Positions 1 through 23,142 of a DNA stretch of 64,000 nucleotides are shown piece by piece. Under the pieces are notes generated by a model, which saw only the letters and a program-made list of their open reading frames with translations, ran no database searches and was not told the DNA's origin. This DNA comes from Minisyncoccota bacterium. Its GTDB lineage: Bacteria; Patescibacteriota; Minisyncoccia; UBA6257. Position 1 is the stretch's first letter. Every line of letters starts with the position of its first letter. Location: assembly GCA_028695015.1 (NCBI GenBank), contig JAQVJR010000001.1:33645-97644 (forward strand), read 5' to 3'. The position numbers and the translations under genes are program-made.

Positions 1-268
1 CTTCGTCTTCTAATTCTTTTATCTTGCCTTTCACCCTCCAATGCCAGTCATTATAGATTAAAAGCTTTGCAATAAAACTATATGTTAGTAGTAAAAATAA
101 CGTCCAACCAATCCAAAACAAAGATGATGCTAAAGATGGTCCTAGATGCATAGCCACATAATTAAAAACTGTTGTTTGATATAGCCCATGGACAAATTTT
201 GTCACAATACCAACTACAATAAGAATCAAGCCCCAAACTAATAAGAATTCCTTCATTTCATCTGTCAT
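1..268 (-). CDS. small multi-pass membrane protein, partial (runs off window start)
   Basis: Minus-strand ATG at 268 preceded by GGAGGTG SD (276-282). Translation MTDEMKEFLLVWGLILIVVGIV… has 3 hydrophobic helices. No stop before the window edge. Confidence 0.4.
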   Translation of the reverse strand, partial: MTDEMKEFLLVWGLILIVVGIVTKFVHGLYQTTVFNYVAMHLGPSLASSLFWIGWTLFLLLTYSFIAKLLIYNDWHWRVKGKIKELEDE

Positions 269-367
269 TTCTCTCCACCTCCTTTCTTTTTTTTAATTTA
301 ATTTTCAAAGTACAAAATCTCTTGTTTTAATAATATCTCTTTATTGTCTTTTTGTCAAGAATGAAAA

Positions 368-470
368 TGATAAAAAATGCTGCCGTCCTTGGCAAGCCAA
401 AAACGACAGCATTAGCAGTATAGCAAATCCAAAAATCTTGTCAAGTCTATTGTGGATAACTTAAAAGATA
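368..470 (-). promoter_or_regulatory. conserved intergenic module copy 1: -35 TTGACA (439-444), -10 TATACT (417-422), two-tier hairpin 376-413 + U-run
   Basis: Read directly from sequence. A second promoter (TTGACA 353-358 … TATTAT) lies downstream of the hairpin, ahead of the gene at 268. Confidence 0.6.
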
Positions 471-483
471 AAAAAACAGGGTC

Positions 484-1041
484 TTAAGGCCCTGTTAATT
501 CTTTGATTTTAAAATCTTTATAATCAAAATCTATTTTTTCCACCTTTTCTGTTAATAATCTTCCTTTTGTGTTTTCTAATGCTAGAAGGATTTCTCCATA
601 ATACAAACTAAACACAGGATTAGACACCCAAATTTCTATGATACCTCCTTTAGAAAACTCCGCGGTGCATCTAAATGATGGAATTGCCCTAAAGCCTGAC
701 GTGTATATTTTTAAATATCCACGTCTAAACCATTCTCGCAAAATGGCTTCATGGACTATCCCTTCCCCTTCAGTTTTAGGATATAATATCTTAAAACTAG
801 CAATCCTCAACTCGGTAAGCTCTATCAATTCTCCCTTGGAAATTTTTCCAAGGTCAAAGCTCGAACTTACTCTGACATAATTTTCTCTAGCTGTATAAGG
901 AACATCTAGTTTTATCACTTGCCATCTAGATGCTTTTTTCCAATTTACATAATCAATACATATTACAATAACTACCACTATCAATATAATTAATAGAATT
1001 TTCTTTTTCTTACTTTTCATTTTTTTCTCCTTTTTTTTCAA
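484..1041 (-). CDS. hypothetical signal-anchored protein (paralog of 1288..1845)
   Basis: 185 aa with Lys-rich N-terminus, one TM helix and a DYVNWKASRW motif shared with the neighbour. Stop codon sits inside the terminator hairpin at 477-496. Confidence 0.6.
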   Translation of the reverse strand: MKKKEKKMKSKKKKILLIILIVVVIVICIDYVNWKKASRWQVIKLDVPYTARENYVRVSSSFDLGKISKGELIELTELRIASFKILYPKTEGEGIVHEAILREWFRRGYLKIYTSGFRAIPSFRCTAEFSKGGIIEIWVSNPVFSLYYGEILLALENTKGRLLTEKVEKIDFDYKDFKIKELTGP

Positions 1042-1167
1042 AGAACTAATTTATACTATTATAATTATACCATTTTTAGAGATTAAAGTCAATATAAACT
1101 CAAATTACCTATAATCAATTAACTATTAAAAAAAGGGATGATAAATCATCCCTTTTATCAAAATTAT

Positions 1168-1275
1168 AAAAAAATGCTGTCATTCATTGAAGCAAGCTTC
1201 TCTAAATGACAGCACTATTAGTATAGCAAATATTAAAACCTTGTCAAGTCTTTTGGGGATAACTTAAAAGATAAT
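1168..1275 (-). promoter_or_regulatory. conserved intergenic module copy 2 (hairpin 1175-1214 with variant stem/loop; -10 1220-1225; -35 1242-1247)
   Basis: Outer stem TGCTGTCATT/AATGACAGCA and inner stem GAAGC/GCTTC replace TTGGC/GCCAA, so both tiers co-vary. Confidence 0.6.
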
Positions 1276-1287
1276 AAAAACAGGGTT

Positions 1288-1845
1288 TTAAAACCCTGTT
1301 ATTTTTTCTATTTCACTTACTTTTATTGGTCCATTATCTACATTAATCTTTATTTCCTTTTCTGCTAACAATCTTCCTCCATTATTGAAAAGTTGTAACT
1401 TTATATACCCCTTATAAACATATAGTTTATTAGGGGTTAAAATTTCTACATTTTTGTCTACAAAGCGCACTGTAATTTCAATATTTGGCACTTGTTCAAA
1501 TCCCCTATATGTTACTCTAATATTCTTTGTTTTATATAATCGATCTAGTATCCAATGATGCACATACCCTCCTCCTTGGTTCTTAGGATAATGAATTTTA
1601 AATCCCCCTAATCTAAGATATGAGTATTCAAATCTTTGTGCTGGTGAATGAATCGGATCTTCAATATCAAAACTCGGACCCACACACACAACATTATCAA
1701 AGGATATAACTGGAAGATTAGCATCTACAACTTTCCACCTTAATGAAGCTTTCCATGTTACATAATCTATAGCTAAGAATAATATTACTATAAAACCAAT
1801 AATTAATATGATTTTCTTTCTTCTGTCTTTTTGATTTCCTTTCAT
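1288..1845 (-). CDS. hypothetical signal-anchored protein (paralog of 484..1041)
   Basis: 185 aa, same length and architecture as 484..1041, with conserved DYVTWKASLRW and HYPK…G.VH motifs. Confidence 0.6.
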   Translation of the reverse strand: MKGNQKDRRKKIILIIGFIVILFLAIDYVTWKASLRWKVVDANLPVISFDNVVCVGPSFDIEDPIHSPAQRFEYSYLRLGGFKIHYPKNQGGGYVHHWILDRLYKTKNIRVTYRGFEQVPNIEITVRFVDKNVEILTPNKLYVYKGYIKLQLFNNGGRLLAEKEIKINVDNGPIKVSEIEKITGF

Positions 1846-1944
1846 TTCATTCCTCTCCTTTTAAATTTTAAAAGAACTAAAACTTAATCTATCATATTAT
1901 AATAATACCATATTAAAGCATTAAAGTCAATGTAAAATAAGTAT

Positions 1945-2015
1945 AAAAAGGCCACTTGGTCAATCGACTCAAGCGGCCACTTTTAGTATAACAAGGTCAA
2001 AAACCTTGTCAAGAA
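1945..2015 (-). promoter_or_regulatory. conserved intergenic module copy 3a (divergent hairpin GGCCACTTG…CAAGCGGCC 1950-1978; -10 1985-1990; -35 2007-2012)
   Basis: Same promoter spacing (16). Different GC-rich hairpin with a CUUG/CAAG-type inner loop. Confidence 0.5.
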
Positions 2016-2037
2016 CTTAATCTATTTTTTAAAATAA

Positions 2038-2132
2038 AAAAAATGCTGTCATTTATTGAAGCAAGCTTCTCTAAATGACAGCACTATTAGTATAGCAAAT
2101 ATTAAAACCTTGTCAAGTCTTTTGTGGATAAC
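2038..2132 (-). promoter_or_regulatory. conserved intergenic module copy 3b (hairpin 2044-2083; -10 2089-2094; -35 2111-2116)
   Basis: Near-identical to copy 2. Sits in tandem with copy 3a upstream of 1288..1845. Confidence 0.6.
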
Positions 2133-3395
2133 TTAAAAATCCAATAATTTCTTAATTTTATCCTTCTGAACCTTATTTGTATTTTTTCCAATAATAATTA
2201 CATTTACTTTCTCTTTCTTAAAGATATTATTAGCTTCAACTTTTAAAGATTGAGTGGTGATTTTATCTATAATCTTCAGATCTTCTTTAATTGGTGTTAC
2301 TTTTCCATAATAAATTAAATCATAATTAATCCAATTAATTCTATCTAAATTATCTTCAAAAGCGTTTTTATCTGATTCTTTAACCTGTTTCTTTAATTCA
2401 TCTAATTTCTTTTTTGAGATTTCTTTGTTTTTTAATTCTTTTATAGCTTGATTAAATAATTCTAGCAAAGGTAATATTTTCTCATCTGGAATAAAAGAAT
2501 AGAAATATATCATTCCCATATTTCTCCAAACCAACTTTGTATAATCTAAATCATAAATTCCCAAAACTCTTAAATCCTTTAATAAACCATCAAGGGTATT
2601 AGATAATAAATGCCCTAATATTCTTAAAGATGTTCTTTGAGCTGGTTTTATTTTAGTATTATAAATAGGAAAACTTATACCTAGGCTATTAAGTTTACTA
2701 TGATTATTACTTTTTATAAGCTTGATTTTAAATTTAGAATATTTACATTTACCAAGACCATATTTTACTGGTTTCGCAGTTAATCTACATTTTTTAATAC
2801 AAGATAAGATTTCTTGAATAACTTGTGGCTTTAATTGATAAGCACTAAAAGTAAAAACAATATTTCCCTTGGTAAAGAATTTTTGATGATATTTTTCTAA
2901 ATCTTCAAGTTTAATTTTTTTAATATTTCTAATTTGATCTTCTCTAGTTCTTGTATAATGGCATTGCTTATCAACTCTTTCAGTTAAAACAGCTTGTTCT
3001 AAAAGATTTTCTAAATCCCCTATCTTAATATACAATTCATTAATTAAAACCTCTTTTTCTGATTGAAAAGCTTGTTTATCTGTAAATTCTGGTTTTAAAA
3101 TTGTATTAATAAAATCTTGTCCTTGTTCTGTTATCTCAGCTAAGGAAGAATATAAAGAAAACCTCATATCTTCCTTACCTATAGAACCTTCTACTTTTAA
3201 CCTTTTAGGTTTTTCTATATTTCTGAGCATTCTAATAAGATAATGCTCTAATAAATGACCCATCCCAAATTCCTTATCAGTTTCTTCAACATAACCACTT
3301 TTTACTAAAATATCTAAATAAACCTTATCTGTTTTATTAGGTAATTTAATAAAATACAAATTATCTTTTAAACTTATTTCCTTAATATAATTCAT
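2133..3395 (-). CDS. putative M16 (insulinase/pitrilysin-like) zinc peptidase
   Basis: 420 aa. N-terminal GMGHLLEH matches the inverted HxxEH zinc motif of M16 peptidases, and the length fits that family. Confidence 0.45.
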   Translation of the reverse strand: MNYIKEISLKDNLYFIKLPNKTDKVYLDILVKSGYVEETDKEFGMGHLLEHYLIRMLRNIEKPKRLKVEGSIGKEDMRFSLYSSLAEITEQGQDFINTILKPEFTDKQAFQSEKEVLINELYIKIGDLENLLEQAVLTERVDKQCHYTRTREDQIRNIKKIKLEDLEKYHQKFFTKGNIVFTFSAYQLKPQVIQEILSCIKKCRLTAKPVKYGLGKCKYSKFKIKLIKSNNHSKLNSLGISFPIYNTKIKPAQRTSLRILGHLLSNTLDGLLKDLRVLGIYDLDYTKLVWRNMGMIYFYSFIPDEKILPLLELFNQAIKELKNKEISKKKLDELKKQVKESDKNAFEDNLDRINWINYDLIYYGKVTPIKEDLKIIDKITTQSLKVEANNIFKKEKVNVIIIGKNTNKVQKDKIKKLLDF

Positions 3396-3440
3396 AAAAA
3401 CCTTTATTCTTATTATACAGAAAAAAGAGTTTAATTAAAA

Positions 3441-3540
3441 TAAAAAAAATGCTGCCGCTTCTGGCAAGCCAAAAACGACAGCATTATTAGTATAGCAAAT
3501 CTTAAAACCTTGTCAAGTCTTTTGTGGATAACTTAAGAAA
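3441..3540 (-). promoter_or_regulatory. conserved intergenic module copy 4 (hairpin 3449-3485; -10 3489-3494; -35 3511-3516; upstream-gene terminator 3546-3568)
   Basis: Read directly from sequence. Confidence 0.6.
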
Positions 3541-3586
3541 TACAAAACAGGGCTAAAAAGCCCTGTTTTTATCCAATTTCTAATCT

Positions 3587-5824
3587 TTAAACTCTTTTTC
3601 CTCTAAAGATAAAATAAGCTAAGCCACCTAAGGCTAAAACAGCTAATAAAGCTATTATGGCTCCTTTATTAGTTGCTGCTTCTTCTTCGGTTTCTTCTAG
3701 TTCTATTGTTTCTATATCTTCAGTTTCTAAAATTTCCATTACTTCTTCTTCCTCTTCTGGTTCTTGCTCAGAACTAACAGGAGTATCTAAAACATCTCCT
3801 TCTGGCACTGAACCATCATCAGCTAAGGCAATAGATTCTCCTAAAACCAATCCTTCACCTAAGCCAAAACATGTTTCATCAGAAATATCTGGTTTCATTT
3901 CAGGACAAAAGATATTATTAATTGCCCATCTGGTAGTTCTATAAACATAACCAGTAGCCATTTCTTCTGAAGACAAACATCCATTAGCAACCCAAGGAGC
4001 TAAAATATCATCCTTGAGCATGGTTTGGAATGTTTTTACTGCATTAAATGTATCTAAATCATAAATTCCATTAACATCTAAATTCAATCCCAAATATCCA
4101 TTTAAGAAGATTTGGAGTTTTCTAACTTCAAATGGATCATTATTAGCTCCATATTGAATGTATTCATGTAGATAAGGAACACAAGCAACACCAGCTACAA
4201 TACCCTCATCTCTTATGGTAGATTCACCTGCTATAGTACCTGATGAAAAACCTCCGCCTCCACCTCCGCCACCACCAGTAGGAGTTCCTCCAGATTCTTC
4301 GGTTTCTGTGTTAGATTGCTCTTCAGGTGGCTCAACACAACGATATACTTTAAGGTCTAAACTTCCTGTATTATCATCCATAGCTCCTTGGTCTTGATAA
4401 GAATTATACCAAGAATTGTACCAATCAGAAATGACAAAACTAACATTTACTTCTTCTTCTCCACTAATATGATAAGCTTTTTGGTATATATGTTCTGAAT
4501 TATAATCCCCCCAAGTAACTACCCCCATTTTGCCGGTTCCCATATCAGAAAGAAGTGATAACACTCCACGATATGGATTTCCTTTAATGCCTACGTCATC
4601 TCTTGGTATTGTTTTCCAACTATCTTTAGTGCCATAGCCTGCATCTGCTTTTTTATTCTCCTCTTTGCCACTATATTTATACACTCCAGAAACCTCAAAA
4701 AGATAATCGCCTGGATTTAAATCTATATTTTGTCCAATGCTATCTTGAGAATCAATATTTATTTCTTTAAACGGCTCTTCTTCTCTCTTGGTCCCTGACG
4801 GACAATCATGGTTTCCATTATACACAGGAACTAACTTGCACGTTTCCGTACAAAAATTACTTCCATCTTCAGCAACTCCTTCAAGCCCATCACATTCTTC
4901 ATCTCCTTCTTTTTTTCCATTACCACATTCTCCTGCTGCTTCTTCTGGCACTTCTAATACATTATAAGCTATACAATAAACATTTTCAGGCCATTGTGAA
5001 GTGTCGTTTCCTAATTGTATAAATTCTTTATTATCACCATTAACTGCATCCTTATAACAACGAAGAGCTGCAAATTTAGTTGCTCCTTCCATTGCTGGGC
5101 TATTATTTAAATCTTCACTAACCCATAATTGACCACCTTCAGTTAGTTGGTTTTGTTGTTCTGGTTTTAGTTCAGAAAAAGAAATGGGTTCATTAGAATT
5201 TACAGTGCTAACATTTGTTTCTTGTTCTTCATCTGTAGAAATTATAAATTGCCAGCCTCTTGCTAAATAGCAAACTCCAGGAATCTCATCTGGATCAACT
5301 GGCTTACCATTATTGTATGAACTGGGAAAACTATTTTCTTGATAATTAGCAAACTCTGTATATTTTTCCCCAGTAGCATCTAAGTGCTCTGCATTAGCAT
5401 TTCCATTAATATCTCCCCAAGATGGACATATCACTTTTATAAAATGAAAACTGGAGTTTATTGTTTCAGACGATCCATTGTCTCCTCCTGAACTTTCGCC
5501 ACAATACCCATGCTCGTGACAATGATTATGTTCTTGTCCTTGTCCTTGTCCTTGTCCTTGCCCTTGTCCTTGCCCTTGTCCTTGTCCTTGTCCTTGTCCT
5601 TGTCCTTGTCCTTGCCCTTGTCCTTGCCCTTGTCCTTGCCCTTGTCCTTGTCCTTGCCCTTGTCCTTGCCCTTGTCCTTGCCCTTGTCCTTGTCCTTGTC
5701 CTTGCTTATTCCCTGCTTCTATTATCCCTGGCTTCAACATCAATCCATTAGTAATTAACAAACTTAATACTATTACAATTGCAAATGTTTTTGTAAGAAA
5801 TTTTTTGTTCATATTTTTTTTCAA
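3587..5824 (-). CDS. large secreted surface protein: (GQ)32 repeat, Myxococcus-type Cys-rich repeat, peptidoglycan-binding domain, poly-Gly, acidic tail, C-terminal TM anchor
   Basis: 745 aa with signal peptide. A 32x Gly-Gln run comes from the CCTTGY hexanucleotide array. CGNGKKEGDEECDG…C…C resembles the Myxococcus Cys-rich repeat. LQIFLNGYLGLNLDVNGIYDLDTFNAVKTFQ resembles PG_binding_1. There is a GGGGGGGGG run, an EEEEE-rich tail and a C-terminal hydrophobic helix ending RGKRV. Confidence 0.7.
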   Translation of the reverse strand: MKKNMNKKFLTKTFAIVIVLSLLITNGLMLKPGIIEAGNKQGQGQGQGQGQGQGQGQGQGQGQGQGQGQGQGQGQGQGQGQGQGQGQGQGQGQGQGQEHNHCHEHGYCGESSGGDNGSSETINSSFHFIKVICPSWGDINGNANAEHLDATGEKYTEFANYQENSFPSSYNNGKPVDPDEIPGVCYLARGWQFIISTDEEQETNVSTVNSNEPISFSELKPEQQNQLTEGGQLWVSEDLNNSPAMEGATKFAALRCYKDAVNGDNKEFIQLGNDTSQWPENVYCIAYNVLEVPEEAAGECGNGKKEGDEECDGLEGVAEDGSNFCTETCKLVPVYNGNHDCPSGTKREEEPFKEINIDSQDSIGQNIDLNPGDYLFEVSGVYKYSGKEENKKADAGYGTKDSWKTIPRDDVGIKGNPYRGVLSLLSDMGTGKMGVVTWGDYNSEHIYQKAYHISGEEEVNVSFVISDWYNSWYNSYQDQGAMDDNTGSLDLKVYRCVEPPEEQSNTETEESGGTPTGGGGGGGGGFSSGTIAGESTIRDEGIVAGVACVPYLHEYIQYGANNDPFEVRKLQIFLNGYLGLNLDVNGIYDLDTFNAVKTFQTMLKDDILAPWVANGCLSSEEMATGYVYRTTRWAINNIFCPEMKPDISDETCFGLGEGLVLGESIALADDGSVPEGDVLDTPVSSEQEPEEEEEVMEILETEDIETIELEETEEEAATNKGAIIALLAVLALGGLAYFIFRGKRV
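5531..5706. repeat. hexanucleotide microsatellite (CCTTGY)n, ~30 units, encoding (GQ)32 on the minus strand
   Basis: Perfect or near-perfect tandem array. Confidence 0.9.
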
Positions 5825-5850
5825 TTTATTAGTTTTCGACCTTTAGTTTT

Positions 5851-6330
5851 TTATTTTTTAAATTTATAGACAAATAAATAAGATATAGCACCTATGCCTA
5901 TTATCCACCACCAAGTAGAAATACCAATGTTTTCTTTATATGCCTGTGCCATTAATTTTTCAGAAGCTGAAAATTCTAGTTCTTCCTCCATTTCTGGGTT
6001 TTTTTCTTGAATTTCTGTTTCTAATACAGTAGTGGGCGTTATGTCAATTATTGTTGTAGTTGTAGGCTTAGTAGTCGTTGTAGTAGGCTCAAGCGTAGTT
6101 GGGGAAGGAATAGGAACAGGGTTTATAACCCCGCAAGTGCAAGAAGGACTATAGGTGCCATCATTACAAACATATCTCCCAACTGATGAGTCACAATGAG
6201 ATACTCCGCCATGCCAAGAACAACAACCTCTTTTAGCATCAACATCATTTATTAAAAATAACAAAGAACAAATTATTATTACTAAAAGTGATAATAATTG
6301 TAAAAATTTTCTATGTTTAATCAAATTCAT
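5851..6330 (-). CDS. small Cys-rich secreted protein with Thr/Pro linker and C-terminal TM anchor
   Basis: 159 aa with signal peptide, a CCSWHGGVSHCD…C…C.C head, a PTTTTTKPTTTT linker, an acidic stretch and a WWWIIGIGAISYLFVYKFKK anchor. Lies 26 nt upstream of 3587..5824, so they are probably co-transcribed. Confidence 0.6.
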   Translation of the reverse strand: MNLIKHRKFLQLLSLLVIIICSLLFLINDVDAKRGCCSWHGGVSHCDSSVGRYVCNDGTYSPSCTCGVINPVPIPSPTTLEPTTTTTKPTTTTIIDITPTTVLETEIQEKNPEMEEELEFSASEKLMAQAYKENIGISTWWWIIGIGAISYLFVYKFKK

Positions 6331-6540
6331 TATATTTACTAAAATCTGAAATAATTAAATGCATAGAAAGCAGAACAGTCTTTTAATTAATCATTAAGGA
6401 AATTAAAATCACTTTTAATAGATCTATTATCCCATCATGAACTATTAGGAGGATTTCTGATATGAGAAAAAACACAAACACTAATCTTCCTGCAATATTC
6501 TTTTTTTAATCCCTAATAGTTGATCAAGTAGTTAATTAAA

Positions 6541-6692
6541 AAAATTGACGAATAACGTCAATTTAACTAATCTGCCTTAAGAGCAGATAAACTTTTGTAT
6601 TTGTTTAAAAGAGAGCATCCCACCATTTTATTGTTTATCTACTTAGTAGTCTCCCCTGGGCCTTTGCAGGCCCAGAGGAGAACCCCACCGTG
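6541..6692 (-). ncRNA. candidate small RNA 2 (promoter TTGACA 6721-6726 / TATCAT 6699-6704; terminator hairpin 6545-6561 + U-run)
   Basis: About 150-nt minus-strand unit containing a 13-bp GC-rich stem (6648-6683, UCUCCUCUGGGCC/GGCCCAGGGGAGA) in an AT-rich gene desert. No match to SRP, tmRNA or 6S motifs that I can recognise. Confidence 0.4.
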
Positions 6693-6946
6693 CTTACATG
6701 ATACTCTATTATTTTTTGTTTGTCAAGTCCTTGTCAAGTTTTTAAATAAAAAACAAATTTGTCAAATTTAAGGAAATTTTTAAAAATTTAATTTTAAATT
6801 TAAAAAATAATTCTTTAAAGTTATTTTAAAGATCCTTATCGGAAAATTTTATTATTCAATGCTTAATAATTCAATTTATAAATCTTAATTATTATATTAT
6901 CAATCAATAACAAGATTTTCTTTAAAACAATCAAGGAATTAGGTTT

Positions 6947-7039
6947 AAAAAAATGGCGTTTTTCAACGCCACTTTAAAACCTCCAAAATTTTGGAAAATA
7001 GGTTTTATATAAGCTCTTCCGGAAAAGCTTACCCCACTA
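6947..7039 (-). ncRNA. candidate small RNA 1 (promoter TTGACA 7068-7073 / TATACT 7046-7051; terminator GGCGTT-GAAAA-ACGCC 6955-6970 + U7)
   Basis: About 95-nt unit with internal palindromes AAGCUUUUCCGGAAGAGCUU and UCCAAAAUUUUGGA. Its promoter is a partial copy of the conserved module promoter. Confidence 0.4.
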
Positions 7040-7111
7040 CAAGATAGTATATATGATAAATAAAAATTGTCAAGTCTTTTATCCACAATCTCATAATTTC
7101 ACAAACTATGG

Positions 7112-7212
7112 AATAAAAAATGCTGTCGCCCTTGGCAAGCCAAAAACGACAGCATTATTAGTATATCAAATCCAAAACCCTTGTCAAGTCTATTGGGGAT
7201 AACTTTTAAAAT
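7112..7212 (-). promoter_or_regulatory. conserved intergenic module copy 5 (hairpin 7119-7156; -10 7160-7165; -35 7182-7187; terminator 7216-7242)
   Basis: Read directly from sequence. What follows downstream is another promoter and a candidate sRNA, not a protein gene. Confidence 0.6.
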
Positions 7213-7247
7213 GAAAAAGGGACTATATTATATAGTCCCTTTTGATT

Positions 7248-7922
7248 TTAATAGTACTCAATACTTTGTGCTGTTACATAGACCACCCTCTTAGTTGGAG
7301 AGAGTTTAATCTTCACTTGTTTAGCTTTCTTTTCTCCAGCTAATCCTTCCTTCAAGTCTACACATTTGACCACTTGTGAATCATCTTCAAAGGTTATCAT
7401 AAAGCAAACCTTTTCCACTGTCACTTTTTCTCCCTTGAAGTTTTGCATTTCAAAATCTACAAATACATCACCCCAGGTCAAATAGCAACAACAGGGTCCA
7501 GAAGGAGGACAAATTGGACAAACACACTCTGGGCATTCATCACAAATACACTCTGGACATTCATCACATATACACTCTGGGCAATCTTCACAAACAGGAC
7601 AATCTGGGCAACAAGAATCACAAGCAGGGCAAGTTGGACAACAAGAATCACAAGCGGGGCAATTACATGGTGGACATGTAGGTGGTGGACAAGGAGGATA
7701 GCAATAACCACATCTTGTCATCAAATCCCTAGGTAAATCACCATTAGCAACTCTTGTTATGCCTTTTGAAGAGTCACAAGAAACCTCTTGCTCAAAGCCA
7801 GTTACCCAAACTTCTACATCTTCTGTTATTGAAGGAATGATTGATCCACTCTTACATCCAGTTAAGAACAATACCATTAAAACCATTGCTAAGATTAACA
7901 ATCTTTTTCTCATTTTTTTCAC
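7248..7922 (-). CDS. lipoprotein with extreme Cys/Pro-rich tandem-repeat core (CPxC / ICDECPEC units)
   Basis: 224 aa with lipobox LFLTGC. A 75-aa stretch contains about 40 Cys (CYPPCPPPTCPPCNCPACDSCCP…CDECPECICDECPECICDECPECVCPICPP…CCC). Consensus promoter and AGGAGGTG SD lie upstream. Confidence 0.65.
   Translation of the reverse strand: MKKMRKRLLILAMVLMVLFLTGCKSGSIIPSITEDVEVWVTGFEQEVSCDSSKGITRVANGDLPRDLMTRCGYCYPPCPPPTCPPCNCPACDSCCPTCPACDSCCPDCPVCEDCPECICDECPECICDECPECVCPICPPSGPCCCYLTWGDVFVDFEMQNFKGEKVTVEKVCFMITFEDDSQVVKCVDLKEGLAGEKKAKQVKIKLSPTKRVVYVTAQSIEYY
7523..7670. repeat. tandem 24-nt repeats (x3) plus ~33-nt repeats (x2) encoding ICDECPEC / CDSCCPxCPAC units
   Basis: acactctgggcattcatcacaaat, acactctggacattcatcacatat and acactctgggcaatcttcacaaac in tandem. 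Confidence 0.8.
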
Positions 7923-7969
7923 CTCCTTTCATTTTTTAATTTTCAAGTTACTAGTTCAAATATGTCTAA

Positions 7970-7998
7970 ATTATATATCATTTATACAATTTTGTCAA
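7970..7998 (-). promoter_or_regulatory. consensus sigma70 promoter of lipoprotein gene (TTGACA-N17-TATAAT) followed by AGGAGGTG SD
   Basis: Plus-strand tgtcaa at 7993-7998 and attata at 7970-7975. Confidence 0.6.
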
Positions 7999-8046
7999 TA
8001 TATAAGGTTTAAATTAAAAAGGGAAGACTTATCTTCCCCTTATTTG

Positions 8047-9213
8047 TTATTTAGTAAAATTATCCTGAATTACTTGTAAAACTGGTTTATCCCAGATAGC
8101 CCAACTCCGATCATTTTCTTCAGATTTAGCTGTTGGCCAATAAAACCAGAACGCTCCTGCCCACCAACTTTCTTTCTCAAACACGTTAAATAATGCTTGA
8201 GTCGCTAAAATTTGTTCTTCTGGACTATAAACCTCTCTGCCTTTTTCTCCCCTTGGAACTTTATCCTCACTATTCCAAGGCTCCATACTGGTGCCTTCTG
8301 TACTTCGATATCCAATTTCAGAAAATATCATCTTTTGGTTAAAGGTTTTTGCTATTGTTTCTAATTGCTTTACTATATTTTGATTACCATGCCTGCTTTC
8401 AAACCAAGCCCTTTCTATATCTTCTAAACTTGGATTAAGCTTTTTAGTCAAATCAAAATAAGGAGCCATAGAGATAATATCTAGATCTTTTAACCAGTCT
8501 AAAGTTAATGTTCTTTTAAAAGTTATCTCTTGCCACCAACAATTAAGCTTAGCGGTTATTAATCCCTGATATTGTTCTTTTATCTTGTAGATAAGATGCC
8601 TCCATCTCTGATCTTCTGGCCAAAGAGAATGAAATTCATTGCCTATGCAAAAAAGTTCCACCCCACAAGCCTCTGCTAAACCAGCATAATAAATTAAGGC
8701 ATTACCATAAGAAATAAACCATTGATTAATATCTTTTGGCTCTAAGCTAGCAACATAATCCCTATCCTCTCCTACGATAAGATCTGGTAATAAAGAAACT
8801 TTTTTTCCAGCTTGATGAATCATCGTAATCATGCTTTCTAAAGTTAAATCTTGAGTTTGGTCATATATTACTTGATTAGAGTCTAAAGTCTTTTGATACA
8901 AAAAAAACCTTAATTGAACATAGTTAATTTCTTGAATTTTCAAAAGGTTTTCTAAAGCATTAAAGGCTTCTAAGCTAGAATATGGATGAGGATCTGGATA
9001 AAAATCTATTCCCCTAAATTCTAAATCATTTTCCTTTATCAACCCGGTTTCTTTAGCCAATGACTCTATTACAAATTCTTCAGTGTAAATATAGTAATCT
9101 TTTTCATCTCTTAATTTAAGAAAAAAAGAAAATGTGTTCTTGATTTCTATTAAAGAAATAACCAAACAAATTAAGATTACCATAGTTATCACTATTCTTT
9201 TTTTAACATCCAT
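8047..9213 (-). CDS. membrane-anchored clan GH-A glycoside hydrolase (GH5/GH113-like)
   Basis: 388 aa with N-terminal TM. CIGNEFH (acid/base NE) and FSEIGY (nucleophile E) are spaced as in (beta/alpha)8 GH-A enzymes, and it has an aromatic-rich C-terminus. Confidence 0.55.
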   Translation of the reverse strand: MDVKKRIVITMVILICLVISLIEIKNTFSFFLKLRDEKDYYIYTEEFVIESLAKETGLIKENDLEFRGIDFYPDPHPYSSLEAFNALENLLKIQEINYVQLRFFLYQKTLDSNQVIYDQTQDLTLESMITMIHQAGKKVSLLPDLIVGEDRDYVASLEPKDINQWFISYGNALIYYAGLAEACGVELFCIGNEFHSLWPEDQRWRHLIYKIKEQYQGLITAKLNCWWQEITFKRTLTLDWLKDLDIISMAPYFDLTKKLNPSLEDIERAWFESRHGNQNIVKQLETIAKTFNQKMIFSEIGYRSTEGTSMEPWNSEDKVPRGEKGREVYSPEEQILATQALFNVFEKESWWAGAFWFYWPTAKSEENDRSWAIWDKPVLQVIQDNFTK

Positions 9214-10610
9214 TATTGATCACCTCCTTGCTCTAATTGTCGCAGAAGATTAATGTCATAAACCGTTCTCGGACGAGATATGTTTTGATCGCCATAATGA
9301 ACTGTTTTAGTTTCTTGCCATGATTTTACTCCTAAGCTATACAAACTGCACCAAAGCCAATGAAATCCAAAAATCCAATACACTGGTAAAAACAAAGCTC
9401 TTTTCCAGCCTCTTTTTTTAATACTATTGTAAAAAAGAAAACCAAAAAAAGTACTTGTCCAAATTAACCAAATCCAACCAGTAATATTAAAAATGGACAC
9501 TTGATTGGTTAAATAGTAAAACCAATAAAGAAAATTACTTGCCCACCAAGCAAACACTGATAAAGGGCTTAAACGATAAGCATAATCTAACCAATTGCCA
9601 AATCTATGCAAATTATCCCAAGTCACTCTTAAATGCCCTTTAATCCATCGGGACCTTTGTTTCATAACTCCACTCCAAGAAGGCGGTTTTTCATCATAAA
9701 CCACAAGATTATCTGCAAAGATAATTTTCTTATTTTCTAGAGTTAATCTAGTAAATAATTCAAAATCTTCTACTAAAGAATTAGTCCATCCTTCTGCTTC
9801 TTGTAAGACTCTAGTTCGGATAAATATTCCTGTGCCTGCTAAAAAACAAGGCAATTTAAAAACATCTCTTCCTCGCCATGAAATAGAAGAAAAAGTATCA
9901 TATTCCACTTCTTGAAGAAATGTCAAAATTGAAGAATACATATTGCTTGTTGAAAGCTCTGCCTGAATTGCATCAATTTCTTCATTTTTGAAATAAGCCA
10001 TTGCCCGGTTAAACAATTTTTTATCCTTTATCCTATTATCAGTATCAAATTGAGCAATAATCTTCCCTTTTGCCGCTTTTAATCCTTCATTTAAAGCTAA
10101 GGCTTTGCCTGATTTACGAGTTTGAATATCTAATACCTTAATCCTTTCATCACTTACAGATTTTGCATTCCTAATAGTATTATCAGTACAATTATGGGCC
10201 AAAACCAGAATTTCCAAGTTTTTGTATTCTTGACAAATTAAATCATTCAGAATGTTTCTTATGACTTTCTCCTCATTATGAGCCGGAATCATTACTGAAA
10301 TCAAAACTGAATCATCTTCTTCTATCTTATCTTCTTTTTTATTATAAAAGATACTGGCCACTCCCATTAAGACCCAAATAAACATACTGAGATACATTAA
10401 GACTACACATAGCAACAAGAAAAAAGGAAACTGAATATCCAAGGAAAAAAAAGCAAAACGATTACTTAAAACCAACCCTTTGCCTACCCCAAATACTTGT
10501 AAGACAGTCATCAGTAAAATAGAGATAACATATGCTGACAGAACAGTTGTAGCACAAGCATAAACAAAATCTTCTAAAGAAAAAATCCCTAATTTTCTAA
10601 GAATTTTCAC
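9213..10610 (-). CDS. processive family-2 glycosyltransferase (membrane polysaccharide synthase; D,D,D,QxxRW type)
   Basis: 465 aa with multiple TM helices, a PAHNEE…FDTDN (DxD) motif and a QRSRW motif typical of cellulose/chitin/PNAG-synthase-like GT2 enzymes. Confidence 0.75.
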   Translation of the reverse strand: MKILRKLGIFSLEDFVYACATTVLSAYVISILLMTVLQVFGVGKGLVLSNRFAFFSLDIQFPFFLLLCVVLMYLSMFIWVLMGVASIFYNKKEDKIEEDDSVLISVMIPAHNEEKVIRNILNDLICQEYKNLEILVLAHNCTDNTIRNAKSVSDERIKVLDIQTRKSGKALALNEGLKAAKGKIIAQFDTDNRIKDKKLFNRAMAYFKNEEIDAIQAELSTSNMYSSILTFLQEVEYDTFSSISWRGRDVFKLPCFLAGTGIFIRTRVLQEAEGWTNSLVEDFELFTRLTLENKKIIFADNLVVYDEKPPSWSGVMKQRSRWIKGHLRVTWDNLHRFGNWLDYAYRLSPLSVFAWWASNFLYWFYYLTNQVSIFNITGWIWLIWTSTFFGFLFYNSIKKRGWKRALFLPVYWIFGFHWLWCSLYSLGVKSWQETKTVHYGDQNISRPRTVYDINLLRQLEQGGDQ

Positions 10611-11310
10611 TTATATCTTCCTCCTTTATTAATTTAACTTTACCAAAATAAGCATTATCAACAAAAACTTGACCTATTCCTTTAAATTCTAAGACTGGAT
10701 CCCCTTTCCAAGCATCTGATGGAGAATAAACTAATAAGCCAATATATTTCCAATCTCCATAACTGCTGCCAGAAATCCAAGGGCCATAAGAAGCATATCT
10801 AGGATACCTGCCATCACCTATTCGAAAAAACTGATGAGCTAATCTAAATCCCCCTTCCTGAATTTCATACTTTACCCAAAATGACACATAGTATAATTCT
10901 TCTATTTCTACATTGGGTTTAAAAAATATATCAGGCACTGCAATAGCCCCATGATCCATTTTACTAAACCCTTGAATCATAAAAGATCGTCTTCCCATAT
11001 AACTATCCTTAGAGCATACAAAAGACACATCTCCAAAGAATATTTCTCCACCCCAAGGATAAGGCCTAAACCCATTAATGTCTGAAAAAACATCTAAAGA
11101 TTTGGGCACAAATTCAAAAGAATTGTTTTCAAACATGGCTTCACTTGAATGACTAGGTCTTGGCAAAATACAATAACCTTCAGGCAACTTAACACTATCT
11201 AGTAAAATCGGGGCATTAGCTCTTAGTTCTGCTGCTCCATAATTTAAAACAGGAATAAAGCTTAAAAACACCAATAGCAAAAAAGACAACAATACTAAAA
11301 ATCTTTTCAT
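10597..11310 (-). CDS. secreted hypothetical protein, first gene of the GT2/GH module
   Basis: 237 aa with signal peptide. Overlaps the GT2 start by 14 nt, consistent with an operon. Confidence 0.5.
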   Translation of the reverse strand: MKRFLVLLSFLLLVFLSFIPVLNYGAAELRANAPILLDSVKLPEGYCILPRPSHSSEAMFENNSFEFVPKSLDVFSDINGFRPYPWGGEIFFGDVSFVCSKDSYMGRRSFMIQGFSKMDHGAIAVPDIFFKPNVEIEELYYVSFWVKYEIQEGGFRLAHQFFRIGDGRYPRYASYGPWISGSSYGDWKYIGLLVYSPSDAWKGDPVLEFKGIGQVFVDNAYFGKVKLIKEEDISENS

Positions 11311-11425
11311 TTCTTTCTCTCCTTTCTTTTTTATTTAATTTTCAAAGTTCTTAATTGAGTTATAATATATCTTTATTATAAGTTTGTCAAGGATTAAAGA
11401 TATAAAACTTCCTAAATAATATAAG

Positions 11426-11525
11426 GTAAAAAAATGCTGCCGCTTCTGGCAAGCCAAAAACGACAGCATTATTAGTATATCAAATCTTAAAACCTTGTCA
11501 AGTCTATTGTGGATAACTTAAAACC
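11426..11525 (-). promoter_or_regulatory. conserved intergenic module copy 6 (hairpin 11433-11470; -10 11474-11479; -35 11496-11501; terminator 11521-11542)
   Basis: Read directly from sequence. Confidence 0.6.
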
Positions 11526-11547
11526 AATCTAATATTGGTTTTAATAG

Positions 11548-11970
11548 TTAATTATCCAACAATTCTTGCTCTCTCTGTATTATCCTTTCAGTAAGCTCCA
11601 TATAATGCTCCATATCTTCCATTAACAAATCAGTATAGGCGCTAAAGTTATCCTCAGTTACTCCATATTTGCGATACAAATCTTCATGATGTGATAATAA
11701 ATTCAGAGGATCTGTCTGCATATAATAAGAGAGTTGGGCTACTATTTCAACATAAACATCATCTGTCATAGCGCCTATGCCTCCACTAGATGCTTCAGAA
11801 GAAGCACCTGAATCTTCATGAGATGTTTCAGAAGGCATTTCAGATGATTCACTAATGCCAGGGATCTCTGTACCAACTCTATCTTTTGTTGATTGCCAAA
11901 CAACAATCCCTATCACTATTATTAAAATAATTGCAACAATTAACCAAATCTGTTTTGAATTAATTTTCAT
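11548..11970 (-). CDS. signal-anchored protein with Ser/Glu-rich low-complexity region
   Basis: 140 aa with N-terminal TM. Flanked by module copy 6 and a terminator hairpin. Confidence 0.5.
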   Translation of the reverse strand: MKINSKQIWLIVAIILIIVIGIVVWQSTKDRVGTEIPGISESSEMPSETSHEDSGASSEASSGGIGAMTDDVYVEIVAQLSYYMQTDPLNLLSHHEDLYRKYGVTEDNFSAYTDLLMEDMEHYMELTERIIQREQELLDN

Positions 11971-12140
11971 TTTAAAATTGTATTTAAAAGAATCTTAATA
12001 TTTTTACTTATTTCGACCTTTCTCACTCCTTTTAGTATATCAATAATTATTTAATATACCAAGATTTAAATAAATTACCTTAATTCAATTAAAAAAGCCT
12101 TTGTTTTTACACAAAGGCTTTTAAAATGCAAGAAAATGTT

Positions 12141-12365
12141 TTACTCTTCAACAACTTCTTCCACTTCTTCTACCTCTTCTTCAGGAACAGGTAAAACTGT
12201 TTCTTCTTCTATTTCAGGCATTGGCTCTTCTTCTATTTCCTCTTCAGGAATGATAGGAAGAGGTTCTTCAGTTTCTTCTATGGTTTCTGAAGAGCGAATA
12301 ATCATGAAAATGACAATCACTAAAACGATAACAATGCCAATAATTAACCAAGTTTTATTCTTCAT
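12141..12365 (-). CDS. small membrane protein with acidic (E-rich) tail
   Basis: 74 aa with one TM helix then EEPLPIIPEEEIEEE…. Chosen over the overlapping plus-strand Ser-rich ORF because of gene polarity and the TM pattern. A bidirectional terminator hairpin at 12093-12122 lies downstream. Confidence 0.4.
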   Translation of the reverse strand: MKNKTWLIIGIVIVLVIVIFMIIRSSETIEETEEPLPIIPEEEIEEEPMPEIEEETVLPVPEEEVEEVEEVVEE

Positions 12366-12507
12366 AAGTTTAAAGAATTTTTATTTTTAATACCCAAATC
12401 TTAAAGTAAAAGACTTAAGGATTTTATAAACTAAATTCGACCTTTTATGAGTTTTTATCTTCTTTATATATTCTAAAGAATATATCAATAAGAGTCAAGG
12501 AAATCCG

Positions 12508-12581
12508 TGGGTGATGCTGGATTTGAACCAGCGGCCTCGTCGATGTGAACGACGCGCTCTAAACCACTGAGCTAATCACCC
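12508..12581 (-). tRNA. tRNA-Val (anticodon CAC)
   Basis: Manual cloverleaf: acceptor GGGTGAT/ATCACCC, D-arm GCTC…GAGC, anticodon stem CGTCG/CGACG, loop TTCACAT, T-arm GCTGG-TTCAAAT-CCAGC. No encoded CCA. Confidence 0.8.
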
Positions 12582-12605
12582 ACTGAGCTGATTCTTCTAA
12601 TAAAT

Positions 12606-13046
12606 CTATTTAATTTCTAAAGTTGCTCCTGCTGCTTCAAGTTTTTGCTTAATCTCTTCTGCTTCTTTTACAGGAATATCTGTTTTTAATTCTTTTGGTG
12701 CTGCATCAACCAAATCCTTAGCTTCTTTTAAGCCAAGGCCTAAAATATCCTTAACCTCTTTAATAATCTGTACTTTTGCTTGACCAGCATCTTTTAAGAT
12801 TAAGGTAACGCTTTCTTTCTTTTCTCCTGCACCTGCTTCTTCTGCTCCTGCACTAGCGCCTCCAACTCCAGCTACCATTTGTGGAGCTGCAGAAACACCA
12901 AATTTATCTTCTAAGGCCTTAACTAAATCAACAAGCTCCATTACGCTTAACTCTTCTATTTTCTTCATTAAGTCTTGAAGTTTTTCTGAAACTTGTTTTT
13001 GTTCTTTTTCTTCTGCAACTTTTTTTTGTTCTTTTTCTTCTGCCAT
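12606..13046 (-). CDS. rplL: ribosomal protein L7/L12
   Basis: 146 aa with conserved CTD ending …EAAGATLEIK. N-terminus carries a duplicated AEEKEQK segment. Confidence 0.9.
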   Translation of the reverse strand: MAEEKEQKKVAEEKEQKQVSEKLQDLMKKIEELSVMELVDLVKALEDKFGVSAAPQMVAGVGGASAGAEEAGAGEKKESVTLILKDAGQAKVQIIKEVKDILGLGLKEAKDLVDAAPKELKTDIPVKEAEEIKQKLEAAGATLEIK

Positions 13047-13065: not shown

Positions 13066-13584
13066 TTATTTTGTCGCTTTAATGCCTTCTAAAACAATAA
13101 CCAATTTCTGAATTGTATTATTCAAATCAGATACTAATCGTTGCATTGGAGAAGACATTGAGCCAACTAATCGACCTAAAAGCGATTCTTGGGATGAAAT
13201 TTTTGCTAATTGTTGTATTTCTTTTTTACTCAAAAACCTTCCTTCAGCCGCTCCGCCTAATATCTGAATATTTTCATTTTTTTTAGAAAATCCTAAAAGG
13301 GTTTTTGCTGTTTTAAAACAATCATCAAAAGCAATCCCTAACATCAAAGAACCTTCTTTTTCAATGGGAATGGCTTCTTGATATCCAGCTTGGGAAAAAA
13401 CAACCTGAGCCAAATTCTTTTTTATTACCTGGGCTGCAGATTGTTCTTCTCTTAATTGTTTTCTTAATTCTTCCAAATCAGATACTTTAATGCCAGAAAA
13501 ATTAAGAAAATAAACAGCCTTAGCTTTTTTTATCTCTTCTAGTAAATCTTTAACTATTTGTGTTTTTTTCTCTTTGGAAATCAT
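13066..13584 (-). CDS. rplJ: ribosomal protein L10
   Basis: L10-like sequence. Start placed at the internal ATG (MISKEKK…). The longer ORF to 13620 begins inside a leader hairpin (tctgtgg-gaaa-ccacaga + T-run) and is probably leader, not coding. Confidence 0.8.
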   Translation of the reverse strand: MISKEKKTQIVKDLLEEIKKAKAVYFLNFSGIKVSDLEELRKQLREEQSAAQVIKKNLAQVVFSQAGYQEAIPIEKEGSLMLGIAFDDCFKTAKTLLGFSKKNENIQILGGAAEGRFLSKKEIQQLAKISSQESLLGRLVGSMSSPMQRLVSDLNNTIQKLVIVLEGIKATK

Positions 13585-13690
13585 TTTTTTAATTAAAAAT
13601 CTGTGGTTTCCCACAGACAATATATAAAAAGGAGTTATTCCTGATCAGGTCTTATGCTCTGGCTGCCTGATGTCTTGGGAAACTAGATAC

Positions 13691-13718
13691 AGTATATAGG
13701 AATTAAATTTTTTGTCAA
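13691..13718 (-). promoter_or_regulatory. rplJ-rplL promoter (TTGACA-N16-TATACT) plus structured L10 leader (13585-13690)
   Basis: Plus-strand tgtcaa at 13713-13718 and agtata at 13691-13696. Leader hairpins include the terminator-like stem at 13590-13615. Confidence 0.55.
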
Positions 13719-13753
13719 GAAAATAGAGCGGCAATAGCAGGAAGAATTTTAGC

Positions 13754-23128: not shown

Positions 23129-23142
23129 TAATAAATGATAAC

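Follow-up and report, generated by a model that had tools for sequence, protein, structure and literature searches.

A dispersed family of promoter-driven terminator hairpins in episymbiotic Paceibacteria, a possible class of minimal RNA genes

A 64-kb stretch of a Paceibacterota metagenome-assembled genome (64,000 nucleotides of contig JAQVJR010000001.1; hereafter the window) carries six near-identical canonical copies of a short intergenic module, all on the minus strand, in which a near-consensus promoter runs directly into a terminator hairpin. The chances are about even that this family is a multi-copy small-RNA (sRNA) gene made of autonomous minimal units, the RNA of which would act in trans as a structured ligand or decoy. 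This reading is based on the autonomy of the unit, its deep conservation, a constraint on the hairpin loop that depends on the promoter, and redundant copies that decay to plain terminators. A broader proposal, which we hold more tentatively, is that the modules represent a new minimal RNA gene class: dispersed CUUG-capped terminator hairpins with a 5'-triphosphate, present across an episymbiotic Paceibacteria clade of family- or order-level depth, serving as an abundant ligand/decoy or as a polymerase relay, tied to islands of surface genes and partly operated through a DnaA box, which would link the cell cycle to surface remodelling.

Results

Six canonical modules lie in one island of the window

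From 5' to 3' the canonical module consists of AAG, TTATCC[A/C]CA, A[A/T]AGAC, TTGACA, N16 (ending TTTGM), TATACT, 4 nt, a hairpin and U6-8. The 28-nt promoter pattern with ≤3 mismatches gave 5 matches in the window compared to 0 expected from 100 shuffles, and the sixth promoter copy, in module c6, was picked up by a regular expression. The TTGACA-N16-TATACT consensus, which a preliminary description of this DNA had ascribed to every full copy, scored 11/12 in each of them in a promoter scan, and TG precedes the -10 in all canonical copies. The modules and their ~95 relatives have the layout of a sigma-70-type promoter, with hexamers 16-18 nt apart and an optional TGn. Such matches are informative here because near-consensus promoters are scarce in the window: the DNA is 31% G+C with essentially all genes on the minus strand, and the 64 kb hold ~22 near-consensus sigma-70-type promoters on the minus strand and 1 on the plus strand, which drives the RNase P RNA. 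A terminator scan called 17-bp stems with 7 G-C pairs followed by T6-8 in the window copies, and the module ends with the sequence of an intrinsic (Rho-independent) terminator, a G+C-containing stem-loop that passes directly into a U-tract. Its A-rich lead-in, long stem, extra-stable tetraloop and U6-9 give it the form of an idealized terminator.

Four canonical copies form a single continuous 17-bp helix with three G·U pairs and a CUUG loop. Module c1 (368-462, minus strand) has the box TTATCCACA at 451-459, the -35 to -10 region (TTGACA-N16-TATACT) at 417-444, a 17-bp hairpin with a G[CUUG]C cap at 376-413 and the U-run at 368-375 (-24.5 kcal/mol; covariance-model score 57.1 bits). Module c5 (3440-3534, minus) has its box at 3523-3531, promoter at 3489-3516, hairpin at 3448-3485 and U-run at 3440-3447 (-24.9 kcal/mol; 68.7 bits). 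The box of module c6 (7112-7205, minus) is the variant TTATCCCCA at 7194-7202, and its promoter, hairpin and U-run are at 7160-7187, 7119-7156 and 7113-7118 (-24.6 kcal/mol; 60.7 bits). The corresponding elements of module c7 (11426-11519, minus) are a box at 11508-11516, a promoter at 11474-11501, a hairpin at 11433-11470 and a U-run at 11426-11432 (-24.9 kcal/mol; 68.7 bits).

Modules c2 and c4 alone have a longer, "type B" hairpin, in which the outer stem is followed by a 2x2 internal loop and a GAAG[CUUG]CUUC apex. Module c2 (1166-1265, minus) carries the box variant TTATCCCCA at 1254-1262, a promoter at 1220-1247, a hairpin at 1173-1216 and a U-run at 1166-1172 (-22.9 kcal/mol; 60.3 bits). 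Module c4 (2035-2134, minus) has its box at 2123-2131, abutting the stop codon of an M16-like gene, its promoter at 2089-2116, hairpin at 2042-2085 and U-run at 2035-2041 (-22.8 kcal/mol; 61.4 bits).

The preliminary description had counted seven full copies with a two-tier hairpin. Six of these are canonical modules on the minus strand; the two tiers are present only in c2 and c4, the other four having one continuous stem. The remaining copy, c3 (1945-2012, minus; given earlier as 1945-2015), is a variant unit that forms a tandem with c4. Its promoter at 1985-2012 (TTGACAAGGTTTTTGACCTTGTTATACT) is homologous but lacks the box, and its hairpin at 1950-1978 (GGCCGCUUGAGUCGAUUGACCAAGUGGCC, beginning GGCCGCUUGAGUC) is unrelated and leads into U5 at 1945-1949 (-20.2 kcal/mol; no match to covariance model R1). 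Two hairpin-only copies listed in the same description are real and lack both a promoter and the CUUG loop. The first (48905-48943, minus) lies directly past a gene stop codon and keeps the outer stem AAUGCUGUUG...CAACAGCAUU and the U-run, with CUUUA instead of CUUG in the loop (-18.7 kcal/mol; 40.5 bits). The second (51673-51711, minus) stands behind a paralogous gene (-18.8 kcal/mol; 42.1 bits), and a strong gene promoter lies downstream of it at 51581-51609 (minus). In an 11.5-kb island of genes for hypothetical proteins, glycosyl-transferases/hydrolases (GT2, GH113) and M16-like peptidases, six of the ~8 intergenic gaps hold a module, and the remaining 52 kb of the window contain none beyond the two decayed copies.

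The helix begins a constant 4 nt past the -10, so transcription should start within the first 1-3 nt of the helix; the predicted start is the first purine 5-7 nt past the -10, within the first helix pairs. A very strong housekeeping-type promoter, AAAGAC-TTGACA-N16-TGn-TATACT, is predicted to drive each module, and the transcript would consist of nothing but a 17-21 bp hairpin under a G[CUUG]C cap, with RNA polymerase terminating in the U6-9 tract. The predicted product is an RNA of ~40-45 nt that has a 5'-triphosphate at the helix base, a 3' U tail and almost nothing single-stranded ahead of the helix. This RNA should be abundant as well as very stable, since a genome carries at least 9 copies under near-consensus promoters. 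A small peptide or leaderless open reading frame (ORF) was considered and rejected: most copies start with AUG, but indels of 1-2 nt put copies out of frame with one another, and in several variants a stop comes after only 4-11 codons.

Compensatory changes preserve the hairpin on the minus strand

To analyze covariation, 74 distinct hairpins of related genomes were aligned. Standard pairs form in 95.7% of the alignment cells compared to 38-71% with slid partners. Seven pairs show double-sided changes (94 cells), and 0/500 shuffles attained the observed pairing or covariation score. The covarying pairs include 12-39 (C-G, U-A, U·G), 13-38 (G-C, A-U, G·U), 17-34, 21-30 and 22-29, the last of which is A-U in 33 hairpins, G-C in 31 and G·U in 10. 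RNAalifold independently yielded the same helix, and a U-run of 6-9 follows it in 74/74 aligned copies. Stem length ranges from 16 to ~29 bp across the family, and the 5' arm, with 16 distinct sequences, varies less than the 3' arm, with 34.

Each hairpin contains 1-5 G·U pairs (mean 3), mostly with the U in the 5' arm, and these would be C·A on the opposite strand. The folding energy lies between -22.8 and -24.9 kcal/mol for minus-strand RNA (z = -5.6 to -7.3) and between -12.8 and -17 kcal/mol for the plus-strand versions. Scores with covariance model R1 are 55-69 bits for sense copies and fall to 20-35 bits when these loci are read in antisense. The strand asymmetry of the G·U pairs, the folding energies and the covariance scores identify the folded strand as the minus strand of the window, read from the module promoter (P1). 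The preliminary description had pointed to base-pair-preserving differences between copies and to G·U pairs on the minus strand only, and had proposed selection on a minus-strand RNA structure; the larger alignment supports all three, with compensatory changes that preserve pairing on one strand only, as in a structured RNA. The wobble pairs make the DNA palindrome imperfect, which should protect it from cruciform-associated instability.

The family spans a genus- to order-level clade

A scan of 185,579 species genomes with the box-plus-(-35) pattern found the element only in STE_70, the sister species representative, where 7 matches fell on two contigs, some of them non-syntenic; 3 chance matches were returned elsewhere. 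A metagenome scan that required only TATACT, 6 nt at each helix end and a T-run returned 99 loci. After ~16 false positives were dropped, nearly all of these had cTTGACA-N16 upstream, though it was not required, and a relaxed -10 brought further copies, for a total of ~95 distinct modules. With ~95 distinct modules from related genomes and covariation among the aligned hairpins, the element is not the repeat of identical copies in a single strain that the preliminary description had considered.

The module-bearing contigs encode L10 proteins 57-98% and L7/L12 proteins 70-99% identical to those of the window, and across these contigs hardly any change is seen in the -35, the -10, the helix base or the loop. 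The spread in L10 identity indicates that the family spans a genus-to-order-level clade, in which even a ribosomal protein has diverged further than the module promoter, helix base and loop. The window holds 6 canonical modules and 1 variant within 11.5 kb, STE_70 has at least 9 copies, and a single 11-kb contig can carry up to 5. Tandem units occur in the window (c4 followed by c3) and also at L006 and L072. The STE_70 module at L012 ~763 is type A, and the orthologous window position holds the type B module c2; different hairpin types at orthologous positions of sister species suggest gene conversion or replacement between copies.

The pattern-scan false positives were L022, three genome-contig matches (L007, L008 and L010) and the ~16 metagenome matches. 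L022 (3990-4800) is unrelated and consists of four tandem ~210-bp repeats, each with a hairpin AUGCUGGCUCUCACUC...GAGUGGGAGUCAGCAU and a U-run. It lies downstream of an apparent large-rRNA 3' end in a different organism, probably outside the candidate phyla radiation. Contigs L004 and L005 were considered as transcript evidence and not used, as their ends coincide with repeats and are assembly breaks.

The CUUG loop is retained in promoter-linked copies

A census of ~568 kb of related DNA yielded 112 distinct AUGCUG-type hairpins with a T-run. Both a promoter of ≥10/12 and a G[CUUG]C loop are present in 89/112, and one further copy combines a promoter with a single loop change (GUUUGC). GCUUGC is thus retained in 89/90 promoter-linked copies and in 0 of ~8 genuine promoter-less or promoter-degenerate copies; the rest are ~10 antisense readings of true modules and four hairpins from the unrelated L022 repeat. 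The orthologous locus past the gene whose product ends in "...LQGFLRGLI" and upstream of rsmI (48.9 kb in the window) occurs in three states: the module is intact at L040 and L111, has a weakened promoter together with an altered loop at L097, L055 and L056, and has no promoter and an altered loop in the window. The stem below the loop varies (GG/CC, GGG/CCC, GAG/CUC, AG/CU, GAAG/CUUC, GGAG/CUCC) while the loop is constant, and a fixed loop on a variable stem indicates purifying selection on the loop specifically in promoter-driven copies. The link between CUUG and promoter is also accounted for by near-perfect termination behind a strong promoter and is no proof of a trans function.

The loop TTGC was considered as the -35 of a T-tract-coupled promoter and rejected. 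The spacing fits only the shortest hairpins (18-20 nt) and not the long ones (>22 nt), yet short and long hairpins share the invariant loop. The apical 12 nt of the c2 and c4 hairpins (~1189-1200 and 2058-2069), GAAGCUUGCUUC, are identical to the apex of helix 6 of Escherichia coli 16S rRNA (rrsA, L113). The identity probably reflects convergent evolution toward a stable G[CUUG]C cap, though it may offer a lead to a shared ligand; the likeness is at the level of a motif, a thermodynamically favored cap, and homology or a common ligand is unsupported.

A DnaA-box-like 9-mer precedes half of the modules

In the window the 9-mer TTATCC[A/C]CA lies 6 nt upstream of every canonical -35 (5 exact copies compared to 0.67 expected), a feature absent from the preliminary description. 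Across the family TTATCCACA (≤1 mismatch) is present in 47/95 modules at a fixed 6-7 nt upstream of the -35, and the other 48 have nothing similar. The AAAAGAC directly upstream of the -35 is conserved with and without the box. In the 568 kb, 49/55 exact TTATCCACA 9-mers are directly upstream of TTGACA, compared to ~7 expected by composition. TTATCCACA equals the canonical DnaA-box consensus; the correspondence is one of sequence only, and the consensus of this lineage may differ. No oriC or dnaA region for a comparison of box consensus was present within the window or the fetched loci. Each module has a single 9-mer, which does not correspond to a DnaA-box cluster of the datA, DARS or Bacillus subtilis DnaA-box cluster (DBC) type with several boxes in ~100-300 bp. 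Through the box, a DNA-binding regulator, possibly DnaA, may control about half of the copies.

The unit is independent of its downstream gene

Modules lie 5-100 nt past a gene on the same strand, often past that gene's own terminator. Some abut the stop codon, where the hairpin may double as the terminator of the upstream gene. Of 87 distinct downstream contexts, 47 have a second near-consensus promoter (P2; TTGACA-N17-TATAAT) within 160 nt, at distances of 1-106 nt (median 37) with no favored value, followed by a conserved A-rich 5' untranslated region (UTR) and the next gene; by eye, some of these second promoters belong to another small RNA unit. A weaker promoter match only is found in 20 contexts, 8 modules face the 3' end of a convergent ORF, 1 is followed by a tandem module and 11 are unclear. 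The convergent partners include argS (at L052) and an MscS-like channel gene (at L077). The L067 module is antisense between two plus-strand genes, as confirmed by translation, and open-frame calls place both neighbors on the opposite strand at L052 and L068 as well. Among 100 distinct modules, 50 are co-oriented with both neighbors and 12 have an opposite-strand downstream neighbor, again from open-frame calls. The convergent and antisense contexts establish that the unit is independent of a co-directional downstream gene. In its layout the module is therefore the self-contained unit that the preliminary description had suspected, with a promoter in essentially all relatives although none was required, separate downstream promoters in 47/87 contexts, and convergent and antisense cases.

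A second promoter had been noted after copies 1 and 5 of the window. The one after c1 is strong, whereas c5 is followed by a weak -10 only, and strong ones also follow copies 2, 3, 4, 6 and 7. P2 of the gene downstream of c1 (330-358, minus; TTGACA-N17-TATTAT) starts 13 nt past the U-run and leads into the conserved A-rich 5'UTR. P2 of the 185-aa gene downstream of c2 (1064-1092, minus) is a TG-extended TTGACT-N17-TATAAT, with an extra terminator hairpin at ~1127-1153 between it and the module. The 185-aa gene downstream of c3 has a TG-extended promoter-like site (1902-1930, minus; TTGACT-N17-TATTAT, 10/12), and the 237-aa gene downstream of c7 has a P2 at 11362-11390 (minus; TTGACA-N17-TATTAT). 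Downstream of c6 the next small unit begins (7046-7087, minus), with a promoter at 7046-7073 and the 9-mer box inverted at 7079-7087, beside AAGAC-TTGACA. This unit, ~93 nt long and spanning ~6947-7087 (minus), contains GGAGG and then a tiny GUG ORF that overlaps a terminator at 6953-6972; it is conserved in STE_70 (L011) and at L099.

Known element classes do not account for the module

Rfam 15 at gathering score over the whole window returned tRNAs and RNase P only, and nothing on the modules. Searches up to E = 5 over 1-13000 gave sub-threshold overlaps at chance level (BTnc231, 25.9 versus 80.4 bits; L10_leader, 24 versus 44; L20_leader, 20.9 versus 58.7), and permissive scans of 1-13000, 6500-7110 and 13500-13760 gave nothing credible on the modules. 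The preliminary description knew of no such element, and we likewise found neither an Rfam 15 match nor a description in the literature searched.

Several further identities were rejected. A LexA-type CTGT...ACAG operator has a spacing of N8, and the spacing here is N22 or more. The candidate DNA-uptake sequence ATGCTGT occurs only 5-7 times in 64 kb, essentially always within the hairpins. Inspection gave no convincing complementarity for sRNA pairing with the conserved 5'UTR of the neighbors. A viral-contig scan for a phage origin gave one false positive, within a coding region. A phage Q-type unit (PR'-qut-tR') was rejected on the initial transcribed sequence ATGCTGTCGTTTTTGG, which has no TAnnnT hexamer, and there was no Q gene among the module neighbors (M16-like peptidase, GT2, GH113 and hypothetical proteins), the rest of the genome not being searched for Q. 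A terminator-embedded-aptamer riboswitch of the HMP-PP thiS type is not compatible with the diverse downstream genes, usually with their own promoter, or with the lack of room for an alternative fold.

Mobile-element classes were rejected on their ends. Miniature inverted-repeat (MITE) or Correia-like elements do not fit a module that runs from the box or AAAGAC to the U-run, with no terminal inverted repeats, unrelated flanks and no target-site duplication. The core motifs of REP elements are not present. The hairpin ends are AATGCTG...CAGCATT and not the R''/R' cores (RYYYAAC...GTTRRRY) of integron attC sites, and there was no integrase among the neighboring proteins scanned, which are part of the window.

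Other units and repeats of the window

The window has a very strong GC skew that holds steady at -0.14 to -0.29 per 2 kb, with the exception of two bins near -0.05. The RNase P RNA (22782-23134, plus strand) scored 106.7 bits, slightly over the gathering score of 100, and is the sole feature with a strong plus-strand promoter. An rplJ (L10) leader (13585-13718, minus) upstream of the L10 and L7/L12 genes scored 31.8 bits against a gathering score of 44 (E = 0.001). Its promoter (13691-13718) is of the same TTGACA-N16-TATACT type as that of the modules, and homologous leader-plus-promoter units are present in at least 11 related contigs.

A gap of 900 nt without genes contains an unannotated candidate structured RNA of ~150 nt (~6540-6726, minus). 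Between a promoter at 6698-6726 and a terminator at 6542-6564 lie GGUGGGG...GGUGGG motifs with a GC-rich hairpin, GGGCCUGCAAAGGCCC; a permissive Rfam scan of 6500-7110 gave no match to this RNA. "GGTGGGG" units behind TTGACA-N17-TATTGT promoters also occur at L033, L037, L045, L090 and L110.

A second repeated cassette, TTGACA-N17-TATAAT with the conserved A-rich 5'UTR (..GYAGCTTGAAAATTTAAAAATTAGAAAGGAGG..ATG), precedes many signal-peptide and lipoprotein genes across the clade, with or without an upstream module. Its minus-strand positions in the window are 330-358, 1064-1092, 7970-7998, 11362-11390, 51581-51609 and 54663-54691.

Two tandem paralog pairs are associated with module copies. The genes at 484-1041 and 1288-1845 (minus) encode two 185-aa membrane-anchored proteins without a Pfam match, and those at 48972-50534 and 51740-52951 (minus) encode larger proteins with the common C-terminus "...LQGFLRGLIS". 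Each paralog of both pairs is trailed by a module or a decayed hairpin, which indicates that local duplication carries the element along.

Discussion

If the module RNA acts in trans, its partner would be a protein that recognizes hairpin-plus-U-tail 3' ends or a CUUG-capped helix. Candidates are binders of terminator hairpins and U-tails, enzymes that bind or cleave double-stranded RNA, and 3' exonucleases. A number of points weigh against such a role. Where the RNA starts and stops, and how abundant it is, are predicted. A fully paired 40-nt hairpin offers no obvious seed or binding surface, and stems of such variable length argue against a protein that gauges the distance from base to loop. 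The CUUG cap and the long stem could serve near-perfect termination in cis, with no trans function needed. In addition, the modules cluster in islands of monocistronic surface-protein genes, an association that a purely trans-acting RNA gene does not predict. Hydrophobic N-termini, here signal peptides, lipoproteins and membrane anchors, are enriched downstream of modules on crude ORF calls, being found in 42/60 compared to 95/266 background ORFs and in 32/52 compared to 16/65 ORFs with an upstream gap of ≥150 nt (odds ratio 4-5). These rates, 62-70% against a background of 25-36%, are in line with the association with secreted-protein genes that had been put forward for testing. In about a quarter of the contexts, without a strong second promoter, the next ORF is 38-50 nt past the U-run and read-through may matter.

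The surface-gene association and the contexts without a second promoter favor models in which the module acts in cis. Convergent and antisense contexts, variable spacing, intervening terminators and the lack of a sensor or pause element count against them. The attenuator and insulator offered as alternatives in the preliminary description are accordingly weakened and stay as rivals.

A cis antitermination or attenuation switch is possible but unlikely. P1 would be constitutive with the terminator as the default OFF state, and a regulator loaded at the TTATCCACA box, the promoter spacer or the initial transcribed sequence would let polymerase into the downstream surface-protein genes, the short RNA being a by-product as in lambda/Stx PR'-tR'. 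The regulator could be Q-like, an RfaH/LoaP-like NusG paralog or a protein that binds the 5' arm. A strong promoter with an immediate terminator is the PR'-tR' layout, including its short RNA by-product (PMC7547250). Such a switch is consistent with the co-orientation of half of the modules with both neighbors, the secreted and membrane proteins downstream, the 20/87 contexts with a weak second promoter only and the nearby ORFs past some U-runs. It would also fit the conservation of the promoter spacer, the upstream box and the 5' arm, which forms the initial transcribed sequence and is the better conserved of the two. However, a helix that begins 4 nt past the -10 leaves no room for a sensor or antiterminator fold, and a -10-like pause element (TAnnnT) is missing from the initial transcribed sequence ATGCUGUCGUUUUUGG. 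The majority of downstream genes come with a near-consensus promoter of their own, sometimes with an extra terminator in between, and the 12/100 modules with an opposite-strand downstream neighbor, including three with both neighbors opposite, are not expected of a switch. No candidate antiterminator gene was identified, the search for Q being confined to the neighbors.

It is distinctly unlikely that the module is an RNA-polymerase relay or insulator. The P1-terminator pair would capture polymerase and free it, possibly still bound to sigma, 13-106 nt from P2, which would raise local re-initiation by post-termination sliding and recycling or shield P2 from read-through and occlusion. No dedicated upstream mini-unit is known to have been shown in vivo to activate a promoter through recycling. 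More than half of the modules have a strong P2 within 160 nt, at a median of 37 nt, which agrees with a relay, but the distance, from 1 to 106 nt, is not a preferred one and extra terminators sometimes intervene. The T-rich spacer from the U-run to P2 can be aligned across loci, and the promoter-less hairpin relatives also lie 5-60 nt upstream of strong promoters; yet equally strong P2 cassettes at 54691, 51097, 14182 and 7998 of the window have no module, and the convergent and antisense contexts offer no promoter to feed. A need for near-perfect termination would account for the link between CUUG and P1. Recycling of polymerase after termination and the coupling of promoters with terminators have both been described in other bacteria (PMC11364550; bioRxiv 10.64898/2026.08.19.745784).

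Maintenance by recombination is very unlikely. The module would then be a ~100-bp repeat that serves as a homology anchor for cassette exchange or gene conversion among surface genes, or a selfish promoter-terminator repeat. Modules flank paralogous and accessory genes in islands, assemblies often break at them to leave contig ends, and the orthologous positions with different hairpin types (c2 type B, L012 ~763 type A) imply conversion between copies. A neutral or selfish repeat would not, however, hold the loop and the compensatory and strand-specific G·U pairs down to 57% L10 identity. The ends have no terminal inverted repeats, target-site duplications or attC-type cores, and promoter-less copies decay in place rather than being excised. 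The weakest alternative, that box modules are dispersed DnaA sites for titration or replication-linked transcription with promoter and hairpin secondary, is highly improbable: the box equals the canonical DnaA consensus, is concentrated upstream of module -35 elements (49/55 exact copies) at a fixed distance and recurs inverted at the same place in the neighboring promoter (7046-7073), but half of the modules are box-free and otherwise intact, each box stands singly and not in a cluster, DnaA binding is proposed from the sequence match, and the RNA-level covariation is left unexplained.

Bacteria of the candidate phyla radiation have tiny genomes with few recognizable regulators, and their non-coding RNAs are almost uncharted. 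With about ten or more copies per genome behind near-consensus promoters, the modules are probably among the most transcribed sequences in these cells. If the trans-acting RNA gene proposed here is correct, the modules would be a new minimal class of sRNA or decoy. If they act in cis, they would be a natural promoter-terminator "null unit" that steers neighboring promoters by relay, insulation or antitermination, which would be relevant to transcription mechanism and to synthetic biology. The clean signature of the module is a ready clade marker and a concrete, cheap target for re-analysis of metatranscriptomes.

No analog compared here joins a dispersed multi-copy family, a hairpin-only transcript and an optional DnaA-box-like operator, and the combination is not in Rfam 15. 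The lambda and Stx phage PR'-tR' units ("6S"/StxS; PMC7547250) share with the modules a constitutive strong promoter, a close intrinsic terminator and a short default RNA, which in the case of StxS can itself be functional. The phage units are single-copy, lie adjacent to a Q gene, and have a Q-binding element, a sigma-dependent pause and partly unpaired transcripts of ~60-200 nt. In contrast, the modules are present in many chromosomal copies without a pause element, their RNA is the terminator hairpin only, and some have nothing to antiterminate into. The greA leader (GraL; Rfam RF01769) also combines strong promoters with a leader terminator to give abundant RNAs of 40-60 nt (PMC2836576). 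GraL is the single leader of one gene with partial read-through, whereas the modules are multi-copy and independent of context; the GraL model gave a weak, sub-threshold match at 3535-3661, upstream of c5 (24.2 bits versus a gathering score of 60).

The sRNAs that arise from 3'UTRs with their own promoter (DapZ, MicL; PMC9438474) have that promoter between the gene and a common terminator, as do the modules that abut a stop codon. These sRNAs contain a single-stranded seed and are 80-300 nt long, whereas the modules are predicted to transcribe the terminator hairpin only. Promoter-coupled terminators (Fletcher et al. 2026, 10.64898/2026.08.19.745784) likewise link termination and initiation signals tightly; they are found in tandem intergenic regions, where T-tracts precede the following promoter. 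In that arrangement the terminator of one gene overlaps the promoter of another and termination occurs ~10 bp upstream of the start, whereas each module places a promoter ~45 nt ahead of its own terminator and so forms a complete extra unit. REP/BIME, Correia elements and attC sites resemble the modules as multi-copy, co-oriented intergenic hairpins among accessory genes. REP and attC are defined by core motifs and their enzymes (RAYT, IntI) and Correia elements by inverted terminal repeats, none of which the modules show, and all of these elements lack the integral consensus promoter that the modules carry.

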